Source: an uncultured delta proteobacterium
GTDB lineage: Bacteria > Desulfobacterota > Desulfobacteria > Desulfobacterales > JAFDCJ01
Reading direction: 5' to 3'
DNA: 64,000 bases
Assembly (NCBI GenBank): GCA_963769935.1
Contig: CAVYNY010000022.1
Location: 96,001-160,000, forward strand
Positions within the stretch are counted from its first letter, which is position 1. Every line of letters starts with the position of its first letter. The notes under the pieces were generated by a model. The model worked only from the letters and a program-made list of their open reading frames with translations, made no database searches and was not told the origin of the DNA. The translations under genes and the position numbers were made by a program. Positions 27,645 to 64,000 of this stretch are shown in pieces.

Positions 27645-29834
27645 ATGCCAATTTTAAATGAATTAAAACATACCCTTCCCAACGTAAAAGCATATAGGCT
27701 AATGCTACAATTATTCAAAGAAAATACGGGCCTTACCGATATCATCGATACTTCAAAAACCATTCGCCAGGCAAAAAAAAGATTAAAGATCTGGGCCTTA
27801 GAGATCCTTTCCGAAAACAAACAGGTCAATGCTTACTATCTCCAGGAAAAAATCGGCAAAAGCCAGCTCGATAAGCTGAGACCCAAAGATTATGCTGCCA
27901 TTCGTATCCTGGATTATATCAAGCATTCCGGCAGGCAATTCAAGGATCTTAATCACAAGGGCGAAATTGTGGAAAACGATCCCTTTGCCATTCTAATGCA
28001 ATGTGCCCGCAAAGGGACTGGCGGAGCCACCCCTGCTTTTTTTTATGACATGATTCACCTGTTCAGACAGTTTTCAGGGCATATAGATCCTGCACCAAAT
28101 AAATTGAAAATTTCATCATGGATGGACAGATATTCTTCAGGTCTTGATCCGGATATCATCCGGCAGCGGGAAAAAAACAAACTTCGGATACTGAAAACCA
28201 TCATTAAAACAATTGATGAAAAAAGAACAAAAAGCAAGCGGTTTAGATTTGAAAAAGGGATGTCACAGAAGGAAAAAATGGCCCTTGCCAAAAAATGGTG
28301 GAACGATCATCAATTTCATCTCAAATTTGCAGTCAGAACCCCTGAAGACCTAAATGAAATGCTTGAGTTCTCCCTTGACAAGGAGACGATGGACAACCTG
28401 AAACAAGCTCAAAAAGTTGGTATTCCCTTCTTTGTCAACCCCTATTACCTGTCGCTTATGGACACCCATGCCTCTCCTGTTTCCCTGGGTGCGGATCTTG
28501 CCATCAGGCAATATATGATCTATTCAAAGGAACTGATCAATGAATTCGGCACTATTCATGCCTGGGAAAAAGAAGATATTGTGGAGCCCGGAAAACCCAA
28601 TGTTGCAGGCTGGATCATTCCAGATGACTGTATCCACAGGCGATATCCCAACGTCGCCATATTAATTCCAAAAAGCATGGGCCGTGCCTGTGGCGGACTG
28701 TGTTCAATCTGCCAGAGAATGTATGGCTTTCAACAAGGTGATTTGAATTTTGACCTTGAAAAATTAAAAGTCAAGAGCTCATTTGGCGAACGCTTGGAAG
28801 CCTCTATCAATTATTTTGAAAATGACTCCCAGTTAAGGGACATCCTCATCACTGGCGGTGATGCTCTGATGAGCACCAATAAAACCCTTCGAAAAGTTTT
28901 TCAAAGCATTTACAATATGGCCAAAAGAAAACGCAGGGCCAATAGGAAAAGAAAAGATGGAGAAAAATACGCACAGATCTTAAGGGTAAGACTGGGCACC
29001 AGGCTTCCGGTTTATCTCCCCATGAGAATCCAGGCTGGTCTTGTAAACATACTTGCCGAGTTCAAAGAAAAAGCTTCAAAAATAGGCATTCAGCAATTTG
29101 TTTTCCAGACCCATTTTGAATCTCCAATGGAGATAACCCCTGAAACAAGATTCTGTGTAGATCAGCTGAATAAAGCCGGGTGGATGGTAACCAACCAGCT
29201 GGTTTTCACATCGGCTGCGTCAAGAAGGGGGCATACGGCTAAACTCCGAAAAGTACTCAACGATATCGGGATTCTTCCCTATTATTCATTTACCGTTAAA
29301 GGATATATGGAAAATAGCCATCTTTTTTCACCCAATGCACGGCTGGTTCAAGAAGGCATGGAAGAAAAGAGTATCGGACTTCTGCCGGATACATTTTTTC
29401 CAGGCCTAAGACAACTGCCTTTAAATGTTGAAAATATAGTTGATAACATCGCCCGGTTGAGAACAGATGCTGACATCCCGTTCCTATCCTCTGACAGGAA
29501 TGTCCTCAATCTTCCGGGGGTCGGCAAGAGTCTTACCTTCAGGACCATCGGCCTTACCAATGACGGCAGAAGAATCCTTGAATTTGATCATGATGCCACA
29601 AGGGAGCATAGCCCAATGATAGAAAAGATAGGAAAAGTCACTATCATTGAATCTAAAAGTATCCATGATTATCTCCAACAGCTTGACAATATGGGCGAAG
29701 ATGTGAGCGAGTATGAATCAATTTATGGATATTCCTTAAGTGAAACAGAACCCAGGAACCCAATCTTTGAATATCCGGCCTATGACTATGATGTAACAAA
29801 AGAAATGACGAATCTGGATCTTCAGTTAGATTAA
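27645..29834 (+). CDS. Long KamA-family radical SAM protein (aminomutase-like), 729 aa
   Basis: HRRYP, CGGLCSIC-QR, DILITGGDAL, RLGTRLPV, THFE, NQLV, GVGK; GAGGA RBS before ATG 27645. Confidence 0.85.
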   Translation: MPILNELKHTLPNVKAYRLMLQLFKENTGLTDIIDTSKTIRQAKKRLKIWALEILSENKQVNAYYLQEKIGKSQLDKLRPKDYAAIRILDYIKHSGRQFKDLNHKGEIVENDPFAILMQCARKGTGGATPAFFYDMIHLFRQFSGHIDPAPNKLKISSWMDRYSSGLDPDIIRQREKNKLRILKTIIKTIDEKRTKSKRFRFEKGMSQKEKMALAKKWWNDHQFHLKFAVRTPEDLNEMLEFSLDKETMDNLKQAQKVGIPFFVNPYYLSLMDTHASPVSLGADLAIRQYMIYSKELINEFGTIHAWEKEDIVEPGKPNVAGWIIPDDCIHRRYPNVAILIPKSMGRACGGLCSICQRMYGFQQGDLNFDLEKLKVKSSFGERLEASINYFENDSQLRDILITGGDALMSTNKTLRKVFQSIYNMAKRKRRANRKRKDGEKYAQILRVRLGTRLPVYLPMRIQAGLVNILAEFKEKASKIGIQQFVFQTHFESPMEITPETRFCVDQLNKAGWMVTNQLVFTSAASRRGHTAKLRKVLNDIGILPYYSFTVKGYMENSHLFSPNARLVQEGMEEKSIGLLPDTFFPGLRQLPLNVENIVDNIARLRTDADIPFLSSDRNVLNLPGVGKSLTFRTIGLTNDGRRILEFDHDATREHSPMIEKIGKVTIIESKSIHDYLQQLDNMGEDVSEYESIYGYSLSETEPRNPIFEYPAYDYDVTKEMTNLDLQLD

Positions 29835-57630: not shown

Positions 57631-58040
57631 TTCGATTGCGGAATGCGGATTTCAGATTGCGGATTGACTTGGCATGGAGCAGAGGGCAGAGGATGAAAGG
57701 ATAAGAAGATCAGAAGATTAGAAGATCAGAGGATGGGAAGCGAGGAGAAGTTATTAGTTATTGTTTATTAGAAGAGAGGACAGAAGATAGAAGCTGGGAA
57801 GCATCTTCGTTTTTCAGCCTCAAGCCTCCCAGCTTTTTGCTATCAACCGGCACCTCAACGCCATAGCCTTTAACCTTATACCGTACACCTTAATCCCTAT
57901 ACCCTCTCCCTTCTTCCCTTTCCCTTTTGCCCTGCCCCGTGCGCCTAATGCCTTGCGCCAGTTAATGCATCCAGTATCGAGTATCCAGAATCCAGTATCG
58001 AGCATCCGGCCGCCGGGCTGACACCTGAAACTTTCATCTC
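57631..58040. repeat. Mosaic of different degenerate 7/8-mer tandem repeats
   Basis: GATTGCG, AGAAGATY, TTATTAG, ACCTTAW, TCCAGTA blocks. Confidence 0.75.
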
Positions 58041-61000
58041 TTATCTTTTATAATAGTCCTGCAAACACTTATAGTGGATGGGTTCACTGTTCTTCGCTTT
58101 CAGGCCCCGCACAATGGCTTCGGCCGCCGACAGGGTGGTAATGAACGGCACCCGGTTTTTAATCGCCGTCCAGCCGATGGTATATTCGTCTACCCGGGAT
58201 CGCAGACCCAGCGGCGTGTTGATAATCAGATGGATATGGCCGTTTTTAATTTCATCCACCACATTCGGCCGGCCCTCCCTGACTTTCAATACCGATTCGA
58301 CCGGAATTCCGCGGGCGGCAATATAGTCGGCCGTACCCTGGGTGGCCACCAGCTTGTAGCCGAATTTTCGCAATCCCTCGGCGATGGGCAGGGCCCGGGC
58401 TTTATCGTTGTCGTTGACGCTGATGAACACGGTTCCCGAGCGCGGTATGGTGACGCCGGCCGCCTGGAATGCCTTGAAAACAGCCTCGCCGAATTTGGGT
58501 GCAATTCCCATGACTTCTCCGGTCGAGCGCATTTCCGGACGCAGGAAAATATCGGTTTTGCTGAACCGGTCAAATGGGAAGACCGATTCTTTAACGGCCA
58601 CATAGGGAAGCTGATCTCTGAACCTGTATCCGATTTCATCGAGTTTCCTGCCGGCCATGACTTCAACCGCGAGTTTGGCAATCGGAATTCCGGTGGCTTT
58701 GCTGACAAACGGCACGGTGCGGGAGGCGCGTGGATTGACCTCCAGCACATACAGGGTATCAAACATGATGGCAAACTGAATGTTGATCAGGCCTTTGACC
58801 TTGAGGGCTCTGGCCAACTGGCCGGTATATTCCCGGATGTCATCATGTTGCTCACGGCTTAACAGAAACGGCGGCAGCACCGCCATGCTGTCGCCTGAAT
58901 GAACGCCGGCCTCTTCAATGTGCTGCATTACCCCGCAGATTTCGGTTCTCTCCCCGTCGCATATCGCGTCCACGTCAAATTCATAGGCGTCTTCCAGAAA
59001 ACGGTCCAGCAGCACCCGGTGTTCTTCGGAGGCCGTGACGGCATTCTGCATGTAGTGTTTCAGCGAATCGATATCATAGACAATTTCCATGGCCCGTCCG
59101 CCTAGAACATAGGAAGGCCTTACAACCAGCGGGAAGCCGATGCGTTTGCCGACCTCCAGCGCCTCATCGATGGAGGTTGCCGTACCGTACTGGGGGTGGG
59201 CGATGTCGAGGGAATCCAGCAGGGCGCCGAAACGATCCCGATCCTCGGCCAGGTCAATTGAATCCGGCGTGGTGCCCCATACCGGCACACCGGCCTTTTC
59301 AAGGGCCAGGGCCAGTTTCAGCGGGGTCTGGCCGCCGAATTGAATAATGACGCCGTCCGGCTTTTCCAGTTCGGTCACGTTCAAAACATCTTCATAGGTC
59401 AACGGTTCGAAATAGAGCTTATCGGCCACATCATAATCGGTGCTGACGGTCTCGGGATTGCAGTTGATCATAATGGCTTCGATACCGAGCGATTTCAAGG
59501 CCAGAATGCCGTGGACACAGCAGTAGTCAAACTCGATGCCCTGACCGATTCGATTGGGGCCCCCGCCCAGAATGACAACCTTCTTTTTGTCAGAAGATGT
59601 TGATTCGTTTTCATGGTCGTAGGTGGAGTAGTAATAGGGGGTAAACGATTCAAATTCGGCCGCGCAGGTGTCGACGATCTTATAGGAAGGCCGCACGCCG
59701 TTGGCCTTCCTGAAACTTCTGATTTCTCCCTCGCTTTTGCCGGTCAGCAGCGCCAGCTGCCGGTCGGAAAATCCCATGCGTTTGGCCCGGATTAGGGTTT
59801 GCTGGGCGAGGGTATTGCGTTTTTTATATTCGGCCGTGATTTCGTTTTCAAATTCAGTGAGTTGATGCAGATTTTCAAGAAACCAGATGTCGATTCCCGA
59901 AACCTGTGATATTTCATCCCGTGCAATACCCGACTTTAACGCCTGCCATATTTTCAGGATTCGATCCGGTGTGCCGTGTCGCAGATCATCCAGCAACGCA
60001 TCCCGGGACAACCCGGCATAGGCATTCGTATCAACGGCGTGAAATCCGGACCAGCCGTTTTCCAGCGATCGCAGGGTTTTGTTCAAAGCCTCCTTGAATG
60101 TCCGGCCGATGCCCATGGCTTCGCCGATGGATTTCATCTGGGAGGTGAGGCGGCGATCTTCATCCGGAAATTTTTCAAAGTCCCAGCGCGGAATTTTAAC
60201 AACGACATAATCAATGGCCGGTTCAAATGAGGCCGGCGTTTTGCGCGTGATATCGTTTGGGATTTCATGCAGGCGGTACCCCACCGCCAGTTTGGCGGCA
60301 ATTTTGGCGATAGGAAAGCCGGTGGCCTTCGACGCCAGGGCGGAGCTGCGGGAAACCCGCGGGTTCATCTCGATGACCACCATCTCACCGGTCTTCGGAT
60401 TCAACGCGAATTGAATGTTGGCCCCGCCGGTTTCGACTCCCACCTTGGCGACGATTTTTTTGGCGGCGTCGCGCATGTTCTGGTATTCAACGTCGGTCAG
60501 GGTCTGGGCGGGGGCGACCGTAATGCTGTCACCGGTGTGAATGCCCATGGGGTCGAAATTTTCAATGGAGCAGACGATCACAAAATTGTCGGCGCCGTCC
60601 CGCATGACTTCAAGCTCGTATTCTTTCCAGCCCAGCACCGACTGTTCGATTAATATCTCGCTGGCCGGGCTGGCCTTCAGACCCCATTGAGCGGCCTCGC
60701 TGAACTCTTCCCTGTTGTAGACGACGCTGCCTCCGATACCGCCCAGGGTAAAGGCGGGCCGGATGATCAGGGGAAAGCCGATCTCGCGGCACAGGGCTTC
60801 GGCCTCTTCCACGGTATGGACGCAGCCGCCTTCGGGCACATTCAAACCGATCTCCCGCATGGCGTTGCGGAAAAGCTCACGGTCTTCGGCCAACCGGATG
60901 GTTTCCAGGCCGGCCCCGATCAATTCAACCCCGTATTCTTCCAGGGTGCCGTTTTGGGCCAGCTCAACCGCCAGGTTCAGACTGGTCTGGCCGCCCAGGG

Positions 61001-61265
61001 TGGGCAGCAGCGCATCCGGACGCTCAATTTCTATGATGCGGGCCACCGCCTCGGCATTGAGCGGCTCGAGGTAGGTACGGTCCGAAAATTCGGGGTCCGT
61101 CATGATGGTTGCCGGATTGCTGTTAATCAGGATAACGATGAAGCCTTCTTCCTTGAGGGCTTTGCAGGCCTGGGTTCCCGAATAATCGAATTCGCAGGCC
61201 TGGCCGATGACAATCGGTCCGGACCCGATCACCAGGATTCTTTTGATGTCTTTTCGTTTAGGCAT
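58041..61265 (-). CDS. carB: Carbamoyl-phosphate synthase large subunit
   Basis: [21 protein letters not shown], two ATP-grasp halves, MGS domain. Confidence 0.98.
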
Positions 61266-62364
61266 TGAACTCCTTCATGTCATTGACAAAATTTTCAAAA
61301 AGATAGCGGCTGTCGCGGGGACCGGGGGCGGACTCCGGATGATACTGAACCGAAAATGCCGGCAGGTTTTTGTGTCGGAACCCTTCAAGGGTCTGGTCGT
61401 TCAGGTTTATATGGGTGATTTCGACCTCGTTGGCGGGCAGGCTGTCGGCATCGACGATAAAGCCGTGGTTTTGGGAAGTGATTTCCACGGCGCCGGTGGG
61501 CAGGTACTTGACCGGATGATTGGCGCCGTGATGACCGAATTTCAGTTTGGTCGTTTTGGCCCCCAGGGCCAGGCCCAGGATTTGATGTCCCAGGCAGATG
61601 CCGAAGATGGGTTTCTTCCCCAGCAGGTTTCGTACCGTATTGACGGCATATGTCACCGGCTCCGGGTCGCCGGGACCGTTGGAAAGAAAGATGCCGTCGG
61701 GATTCCAGGCCAGTACGTCCGCGGCGGAGGCGTGAGCCGGAAATACCCGCAGCTTACAGCCGTGCTGATACAAGGCGCGCAGAATGGAAAATTTCACACC
61801 GAAATCATAGACCGCGACCCTGAAATTGAGCCGCTGATCACGCCTGGTTTCTTCGTCCATGGGCCACTCATAATTTTCTTCGGTGGTGACTTCCCGGGCG
61901 ATATCGCGCCCCACCAGCTGTTGGCCGGTTTTAAGTCTTTGCAGCAAAACTTCGAACGGCTCATCGGCGGTGGTTATCGTCCCCATCTGGGCCCCATGGT
62001 CGCGCAGATGGCGGGTCAGCTGCCGGGTGTCGATGTCGCTGATTCCGACTATGCCGTAATATTTTAAATATTCATCCAGCGACTTGGTCGCCTGCCAGTG
62101 GCTGACCACCGGGCTGTATTCGCGAATAATCAAGCCGGCCGCATATATGCGCCGGGATTCGAAATCTTTCGGGTTGACCCCATAGTTGCCGATCTGGGGA
62201 TACGTCATGGTCACCAGCTGGAAATGATAGGACGGGTCCGTGATAATTTCCTGGTAGCCCATCATGGCGGTGTTAAACACCACCTCGCCAACGCTGGTGC
62301 CCATAGCGCCCAGGGAAAGCCCTTCAAAGTGCGTGCCGTCGGACAGGATAAATCTTGCTTTCAT
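61258..62364 (-). CDS. carA: Carbamoyl-phosphate synthase small subunit
   Basis: GEVVFNT, SNGPGDP, GICLGHQ, QYHPE. Confidence 0.98.
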
Positions 62365-62385
62365 CTTTTATGTGCCTATAACTGT

Positions 62386-62602
62386 TTGAATTGAATATTG
62401 AAATTGAAGATTGAATATTTGAGGTATTCTATCTTTTTAAGTATCGCCCTTAACATCTTTTCTCCTGCTCCTTGCGCCTTTAACCTTTTACCTTTATCCT
62501 TCCTTTTACGCTATGCGCTATGCGCTATGCTCCATGCGCTATGCACCTATCGCGCGCAACCCGCAACTCGTACCCGCACCTCGTAACCCGTGCCTCGCAA
62601 AC
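62386..62602. repeat. Mosaic of degenerate heptamer repeats between argG and carA
   Basis: ATTGAA(T/G), CCTTTA, CGCTATG and CCCGCAA-like blocks. Confidence 0.75.
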
Positions 62603-62606
62603 CGAT

Positions 62607-63872
62607 TTAGTCTCTTTTAAACTTGCTGTAATCCGGCTTGCGATAGCGACTTTCGCCGCCGCCGTCAATAGCTAAAAGGGATTCAACCTTCAGCGGCAGG
62701 CCGAACAGCTGGATGAATCCCTGGGCATCCTGCTGGTTGTACACATCTTCTTCGCCGAAGGAGGCATAGTCTTCGCGATACAGGCTGTAGGGGCTTCTGC
62801 GTCCGGCGATAATAATGTTGCCCTTGTAGAGCTTCAGACGCACGGTGCCGCTGACCGTTCGCTGGGTGACTTTGACGAACGCGTCCAGGGCTTCGTGCAA
62901 TTGCATAAACCACATGCCGTTGTAGACCAGTTCCGCGTATTTAACCGCCACAAAATCCTTATAGTGCATGGTGTGCTTGTCCAGGCAAATACTCTCAAGG
63001 GCCTGGTGAGCACGGAAAATTATCGTACCGGCCGGTGTTTCATAAACTCCCCGGCTTTTCATGCCCACCAGTCGGTTTTCAACAATATCCACGCGCCCGA
63101 TACCGTGGGCGCCGGCGATTTTATTTAAGCGGGTGAACATGTCCACCGCCGACAGTGTCTCACCGTTCAAACTGACCGGATTGCCTTTCTCAAAGCCGAT
63201 TTCGACATACTCGGGCTTATCCGGTGCATCTTCGGGGCTGACCGATAGCTTAAACATTGGAGCTTCCGGTTCATTCCAGGGGTCTTCCAGCATCCCGCCT
63301 TCATGGGACATGTGCATGATGTTGCGGTCACGGCTGTAAATATCCTTTTCGGTCTGGGTCAGCGGGATGTTGTATTTGTTGGCATATTTGATGGCATCTT
63401 CCCGGCTGCGGATCTCCCACTCACGCCAGGGAGCAATGACTCTGAGCTTCGGGTTGAGCGCCATCACGGTGAGCTCGAATCGGACCTGATCGTTGCCCTT
63501 TCCGGTGCAGCCATGGGCAACGGCATCCGCCCCTTCCTCTTCCGCGATTTCAACCATTTTTTTGGCGATCAGGGGGCGGGCAATGGAGGTGCCCAACAGG
63601 TATTCCCGTTCATACACCGCCCCGGCCTGCATGGTGGGAAACACATAGTCGGTTAAAAATTCCTCCCGCAGGTCGGCTACGATCAGCTTGGCGGCGCCGG
63701 ATGCCAGGGCCTTGTCCTCCAGGCCTTCCAGTTCTTCCTGCTGGCCCACATCGGCCGTAAAACAGATCACATCACAGTTATCGTAGTTGTTTTTCAGCCA
63801 GGGAACGATCACGGAGGTATCCAACCCGCCGCTGTAAGCCAGCACCACTTTTTTAACCTTGCCTTTGACCAT
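62607..63872 (-). CDS. argG: Argininosuccinate synthase
   Basis: [41 protein letters not shown] before ATG 63872. Confidence 0.97.
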
Positions 63873-63888: not shown

Positions 63889-64000
63889 AAAAAGAAAAAC
63901 CCCGGCAGGTGCCGGGGTTTTTTGTTTTCCATTCTGGTATTAACAGGTTCATATCCGATACAAAAAACACCCGGCCCTTGATCGGCTGCGACGGCGGCAA
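63889..64000 (-). promoter_or_regulatory. Putative arginine-sensing transcription attenuator (leader peptide 3' part, antiterminator, terminator)
   Basis: Leader ...[16 protein letters not shown] (63999-63949); terminator CCCCGGC-ACCT-GCCGGGG-TTTTTCTTTTT; alternative pairing of 63975-63960 with 63925-63911. Confidence 0.75.

Follow-up and report, generated by a model that had tools for sequence, protein, structure and literature searches.

A conserved arginine-codon leader upstream of argG-carA-carB in Desulfobacterales, most likely a transcription attenuator tuned to Arg-tRNA

The argG-carA-carB locus and its leader

The window, that is, the whole stretch of 64,000 nucleotides of contig C22 (96001-160000) of an uncultured Desulfobacterales genome that we analysed, carries at its end 3 genes of the minus strand, all above the NCBIfam cut-off. 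These are argG (62607..63872), which encodes an argininosuccinate synthase of 421 amino acids and has a ribosome binding site at 63885-63879, carA (61258..62364), the only copy found in the genome, and carB (58041..61265), which overlaps the end of carA. From the gene spacing we infer that argG-carAB are co-transcribed. The argG-carA gap is of only 2-5 nt in three loci, and a consensus scan of this gap in the source genome found neither promoter nor terminator. The intergenic stretches 62365-62606 and 57631-58040 hold purine- or pyrimidine-rich short repeats of a type seen at several sites of the genome.

An earlier note on this DNA had proposed a classical Arg-codon attenuator in front of these genes, based on a minus-strand frame whose beginning lies outside the window. 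The in-window part (63949..64000), read to its stop, contains 6 Arg in its 16 visible codons and uses five different Arg codons, exactly as had been described. Extension along the contig supplied the missing start: after an upstream stop, the frame opens at an ATG at C22 160038, 38 nt past the window end, and it is therefore not the C-terminus of a long upstream gene, a possibility that we discarded. The complete leader ORF (C22 160038-159949) has 29 codons, of which 10 encode Arg. The ribosome binding site that had been expected together with the start codon is represented only by a weak Shine-Dalgarno sequence, AGGA, ending 14 nt upstream of the ATG. A sigma-70-like promoter (TTGACA, 17 nt spacer, extended -10 CATATT) lies on the same strand beyond the window end, at C22 160100-160072 and 34 nt 5' of the leader ATG, and is joint best among 5 such sites in 2.1 kb. 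This site sits 5' of the terminator described below with no other gene in between, and the nearest upstream ORFs end more than 300 nt from the leader region. Two small ORFs of about 59 and 72 amino acids lie 5' of the promoter, beyond the window (locus L001:5383-5777, minus strand); they had no NCBIfam match at 1e-10 and look like a small toxin-antitoxin-type pair.

The Arg run spans codons 9-21 (C22 160014-159976; in-window part 63976..64000), and every Arg codon from 9 to 17 is CGU or CGC. The idea that the Arg codons are the control codons stands, and the emphasis on five different codons does not, as the conserved set is the CGU/CGC cluster further upstream, most of which is beyond the window end. 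At the 6.2% Arg content of the long ORFs of this genome, the probability of finding at least 10 Arg in 28 codons is 3.7e-6, so the richness in Arg is not due to chance. Among 186 terminator-like sites of the genome, only the argG site has in front of it a short ORF with 7 Arg among 10 codons, and one other site had 6.

The intrinsic terminator (segments 3:4 and U-tract, 63889..63917) consists of a GC stem of 7 bp with a 4-nt loop at 63917-63900 and a U-tract at 63899-63889, and it lies just before the argG ribosome binding site, where it had been placed originally. The complementarity reported between 63975-63960 and 63925-63911, with one bulge and beginning 12 nt after the last RRR, was likewise confirmed. 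We call these stretches segment 2 (63960..63975), the 5' strand of the predicted antiterminator, with a duplex energy of -19.4 kcal/mol (shuffle p 0.007), and segment 3 (63911..63925), common by complementarity to antiterminator and terminator. Folding of the source-genome RNA gave three helices, the antiterminator 2:3, the terminator 3:4 and a predicted protector 1:2, whose segment 1 corresponds to the start of the Arg run and lies beyond the window end (C22 160020-160013, minus strand).

Conservation of the leader and origin of argG

ArgG is present in 18 of 23 genomes of the genus, and 17 of these loci were fetched, 2 of them ending at a contig edge. Promoter, Arg-run ORF, segment 2 and terminator were found in all 15 genus loci with enough upstream DNA, and no such leader was found in 13 loci from other families of the order, where ArgG is 54-58% identical and argG is mostly placed behind argF, argB or argD. 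The genus peptides have in common an RIRxRRR motif and a G-C/F-x-x-W-T-like tail, and R-x-R is the most invariant part of the leader. Within the source genome, nhmmer with the genus alignment found no other full-length significant locus, and inspection found no such leader upstream of argJ, two argC-like genes, argD-argH or argS.

To avoid circularity, the order was searched with a pattern made of segment 2 and terminator only, which names neither Arg codons nor argG. It gave 34 matches in 401 Desulfobacterales genomes, distributed over 12 genera, against 0 for the reversed control. All 30 loci returned have the Arg run (29 with ATG and 1 cut), and argG is the next gene in 29 of them, the remaining one being cut. 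We then assembled a set of 32 loci comprising 29 of these 30 plus 3 more, which includes the source genome and 6 congeners. A frame rule blind to Arg selects exactly one frame in each of the 32, and in these frames Arg makes up 26.9% of 905 leader residues, with 189 of 243 Arg codons being CGU or CGC. A separate count over 31 leaders, a set partly chosen by Arg content, gave 25.7% Arg for the leader frame and 5.6% for the two remaining frames, and the leaders contain 4-12 Arg. In one genus the ORF passes through the antiterminator in a shifted frame without losing the in-frame Arg run, which argues for selection on the Arg codons and not on the peptide tail. In metagenomes, a pattern that does name Arg codons recovered 26 loci, with argG next in 24 and 2 cut. 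All these conserved sequences are kin and not independent samples.

The earlier note had looked to relatives for conserved Arg runs and covarying stems. Arg run, antiterminator and terminator are indeed conserved, but the antiterminator does not covary: within Desulfobacterales, 0 of 11 pairs showed double changes, its core is invariant, and the 85% of paired cells is no better than shuffles. One A-U/G-C pair of the terminator stem covaries in 7 of 23 sequences, and RNAalifold on these 23 leaders returned the terminator only. The protector helix 1:2 is paired in 76.6% of cells, not beyond shuffles. When each leader was tested with its own arms, the duplex was stronger than in dinucleotide shuffles (p<0.05) for 10 of 12 Desulfobacterales leaders and for 7 of 19 Chloroflexota leaders, the latter picked by eye.

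In a FastTree phylogeny of 120 proteins, the ArgG of the leader locus falls within a clade of Anaerolineae proteins and is well separated from the ArgG of the other families. In an IQ-TREE analysis of 23 rows, holding Desulfobacterales ArgG together was rejected (p-AU 7e-5), as was holding Chloroflexota ArgG together without the leader-type Desulfobacterales proteins (p-AU 6e-5), with constrained groups that were named after the first tree was seen. By eye, an Arg-run ORF plus terminator precedes argG in 11 of 18 Chloroflexota loci and in 9 of the best 30 Anaerolineae loci; in several of the remaining ones argG stands close behind another gene. The Anaerolineae leaders use different complementary sequences for their segments, and their peptides have only the Arg run in common. 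Because the leaders of the two phyla are unaligned, their homology is deduced from the ArgG gene tree. On the basis of these phylogenies, argG is likely an Anaerolineae-type xenolog that moved together with its leader from Anaerolineae into Desulfobacterales, and the leader seems to have accompanied argG in this move as a regulator complete in itself. The source genome keeps argD-argH without argF and argG (C3 95143-97932), genes that many relatives keep together. Four Anaerolineae argG leaders (L127, L132, L137 and L140) have 3-5 Arg and a terminator with no clear antiterminator by the duplex test, and they possibly have a different geometry.

Folding model, proposed mechanism and alternatives

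Next, we folded the leader with a footprint model in which the ribosome holds the positions from -15 to +12 around the A-site unpaired and the RNA is ended at the 3' arm of the terminator. For the source genome, the terminator probability was 1.00 in naked RNA, fell to 0.01-0.07 with the A-site at codons 7-14, rose to 0.65-0.89 at R15-R16 and was about 1.0 from R17 to the stop. In this model, stalls at R9-R13 would lead to antitermination and stalls at R21 and R28 would not, and the antitermination window reaches R19 if pairing behind the ribosome is ignored. Across the 32 loci, equilibrium folding brought the terminator below 0.5 at an Arg codon in 19 and not in 13, so a kinetic trap would be needed in these 13. 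The terminator was also low with the ribosome at the stop in 5 of the 32 loci, and in naked RNA in 4.

These results are consistent with a trp/his-type transcription attenuator of argG-carA-carB that senses charged tRNA-Arg, a reading to which we assign a probability of about 0.85 on the strength of sequence and folding. When Arg-tRNA is short, the ribosome would stall in the CGU/CGC cluster, at codons 9-13 or perhaps as far as 17, and would cover segment 1; segment 2, thus freed, would pair with segment 3 ahead of terminator formation, and transcription would proceed into argG-carAB. When Arg is plentiful, the ribosome would pass segment 2 to the stop, the 1:2 helix would re-form behind it and the terminator would form. 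The switch originally proposed, with a stall freeing the antiterminator and reading to the TGA allowing termination, is thus supported by folding, to which we add the protector 1:2 helix; with it, untranslated leader RNA is predicted to terminate as well. Among metatranscriptome contigs from 4 runs of a single study, one with 4 differences extends across the terminator into argG; as DNA carry-over is possible and transcript ends cannot be read from contigs, we do not count it as evidence.

The principal rival, which we regard as quite improbable, is that the leader is a nascent-peptide arrest leader of the SpeFL, TnaC or fungal AAP kind, binding free Arg or ornithine in the ribosomal tunnel, and that this stall sets the terminator. 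The motif and tail common to the genus peptides speak for it, and fungal AAP controls carA-like genes. However, the tail is explained by the antiterminator sequence, being read in a different frame in one genus, the N-terminus has no synonymous bias (p 0.51), and a peptide conserved up to the stall site, as would mark an arrest leader, was not found, with nothing but the Arg run common to the Anaerolineae peptides. Moreover, a stall in the run turns the genes on, which fits Arg-tRNA shortage and not Arg excess. Arg-codon leaders with other mechanisms do exist, and the closest in kind, orf34/SpeFL of Salmonella speF, is likewise an upstream ORF whose Arg codons sense arginine supply; it differs in having two Arg codons, in acting through Rho, occlusion of the ribosome binding site and RNase G, in controlling ornithine decarboxylase and in its conserved peptide, as far as the portion of that report used here goes (PMC6386406).

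The invariance of R-x-R could instead mean that what the leader detects is not Arg supply but a general slowing of ribosomes, or stalling of the macrolide type at +X+ motifs (R-I-R), and Arg-Leu-Arg motifs are described for antibiotic-sensing leaders in the part of PMC8632094 that we cite. Against this reading, to which we give less credence still, argG is downstream in 29 of 30 loci with no resistance or ribosome-rescue gene there, and the leaders hold the 4-12 Arg noted above. Least credible of all is that the terminator merely damps or insulates argG, the Arg-rich frame having arisen incidentally from a GC-rich hairpin or having come along as a relic with the transferred gene. The Arg codons are part of the 1:2 hairpin, the antiterminator lacks covariation and the sequences are related by descent, which speaks for it; yet an in-frame ATG and a stop are kept across the returned genera while the flanking residues diverge, Arg is enriched in the leader frame over the other two (in the partly Arg-chosen set of 31), and the promoter is upstream of the terminator with no gene between.

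A further element concerns the leader stop, which an ATG overlaps to open a possible second short ORF that runs through the terminator (63890..63952 as the part up to the U-tract, minus strand). The overlap is seen in 22 of the 23 leaders aligned and, among metagenome loci, in 22 of 26, versus 1 of 19 Chloroflexota leaders and a background of 19%. In 28 distinct genus-type sequences, a count restricted to loci that have the ATGA overlap, with the more distant families and two loci whose frame closes after 3 codons set aside, 42% of changes in the second frame are synonymous versus 21% in column shuffles (p 0.0006), in a test chosen after the pattern was seen, and no stop occurs in the first 8 codons (p 0.008). 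The per-position parsimony counts are only 30/23/35, and of the three frames of a non-coding control one reached p 0.02. As a general feature the second ORF was rejected, 9 of 20 order loci having no ATG version and most of these having carA downstream, and so was -1 frameshifting into it, as the slippery run of the source genome is not kept in other leaders. We therefore treat it as a lead only. On this lead one may build a two-input attenuator, which we consider unlikely: having moved from Anaerolineae with argG and controlling the sole carbamoyl-phosphate synthase, the device would in this genus use the second mini-ORF, translationally coupled at the leader stop, to carry a ribosome onto the terminator, so that carAB would be read when Arg is plentiful and pyrimidines are short. 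If true, this would be a tandem-ORF attenuator that integrates two pathways.

Arginine control, pyrimidine supply and known systems

No ArgR-family repressor, which the earlier note had wanted checked, was found in the source genome (96.7% complete) or in its 22 congeners (0/23), in a search for the ArgR family alone; none was found in 5 leader-bearing genomes, and the family is present in 1 of 61 Anaerolineae and in none of the other 60. In the cited part of PMC5343134, ArgR is reported to be lacking from all proteobacterial groups studied other than Gammaproteobacteria, and deltaproteobacteria are among these groups, which leaves the control of Arg synthesis there open.

Carbamoyl-phosphate synthase complicates the picture. 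One carA is present in 18 of 23 genus genomes, just behind argG in 17 of these and with argH between in one, and the only carbamoyl-phosphate synthase thus appears, judging from gene order, to be under Arg control. A single carA behind an Arg leader conflicts with pyrimidine synthesis, which also requires this enzyme. The need could be covered by a basal level of readthrough, by a promoter that escaped the scan or by a gene on C11 that resembles carbamate kinase. The only ornithine carbamoyltransferase found belongs to a catabolic-looking cluster (C11 542346-548799) with amidinotransferase-like and carbamate kinase-like genes, the latter an ORF of 259 amino acids that, identified by inspection, looks shortened. 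In four relatives (L213, L223, L224 and L226), a divergent aspartate carbamoyltransferase seems, by N-terminal likeness, to follow argG behind the Arg leader; that of the source genome (C22 189431-190513) is just over the NCBIfam cut-off and divergent from argS and an argB-like gene. Genes named by inspection as lysX-, argC-, argB- and argD-like lie at C32 149273-153929 (minus strand) and suggest a LysW-type pathway beside the ArgJ route. In the source genome, a gene resembling DAHP synthase is also preceded by a short ORF rich in Phe and a terminator (C8 about 29116-29330, plus strand); this is a probable second classical attenuator and suggests that the device is in use in this organism.

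The argG leader resembles trpL, hisL, leuL, thrL and pheL in its short ORF with a run of cognate codons, its 1:2, 2:3 and 3:4 helices, its intrinsic terminator and the biosynthetic operon downstream, and differs from them in that the amino acid sensed would be Arg. Rfam gave 40 weak matches up to E 10 and none at the gathering score (Leu_leader 25.3 of 50, Phe 23.6 of 55, His 20.2 of 49, Thr 16.5 of 55). T-boxes bind uncharged tRNA directly and have no ORF, and none was among these 40 matches. Arg T-boxes, which share with the leader a premature termination before arg genes, are mentioned in PMC1262725, whose cited part also reports that no RNA element turned up for the arg genes of Actinobacteria.

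Other systems share single traits, each compared here on the portion of the report cited. The E. coli arg genes are described as under a repressor and not an attenuator (PMC6345581). In S. aureus, the leader peptide rbfL also senses Arg-tRNA charging, but through rare AGA/AGG codons, and it blocks translation initiation, so that starvation turns a biofilm regulator off, with no terminator mentioned in that portion (PMC13009471). E. coli argL, too, is a small ORF that lies at the start of a gene for arginine synthesis and influences the expression of that gene; it differs in overlapping argF and dampening argF translation, and the portion cited mentions neither arginine sensing nor a terminator (bioRxiv 10.1101/511675). 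Premature termination before carAB is known from the Pseudomonas leader, whose stem-loop is instead pyrimidine-responsive, Arg acting there through ArgR (PMC4997734). Upstream ORFs for other amino acids are described in PMC8632094 and PMC11109978, and PMC2965389, in whose text, as far as used here, arginine is absent, lists in its supplement two unannotated argG terminators of other taxa. In agreement with the earlier note, which knew of no characterised bacterial Arg attenuator of this type, we found none for arginine biosynthesis in full-text searches, an earlier prediction in subscription papers being possible.

Taken together, the Arg-codon attenuator first proposed is supported, as both a start codon and conservation were found, and at the level of sequence the leader has every testable feature of classical attenuators except covariation. 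The element is real and conserved and is most likely an attenuator of the classical type, responding to Arg-tRNA. As a mechanism this is well known; the new part is arginine, for which none was found described. Such a leader would be a compact Arg-tRNA sensor for reporters and, for a pathway that is the textbook case of control by a repressor, it offers a concrete answer to how Arg may be controlled in two phyla.
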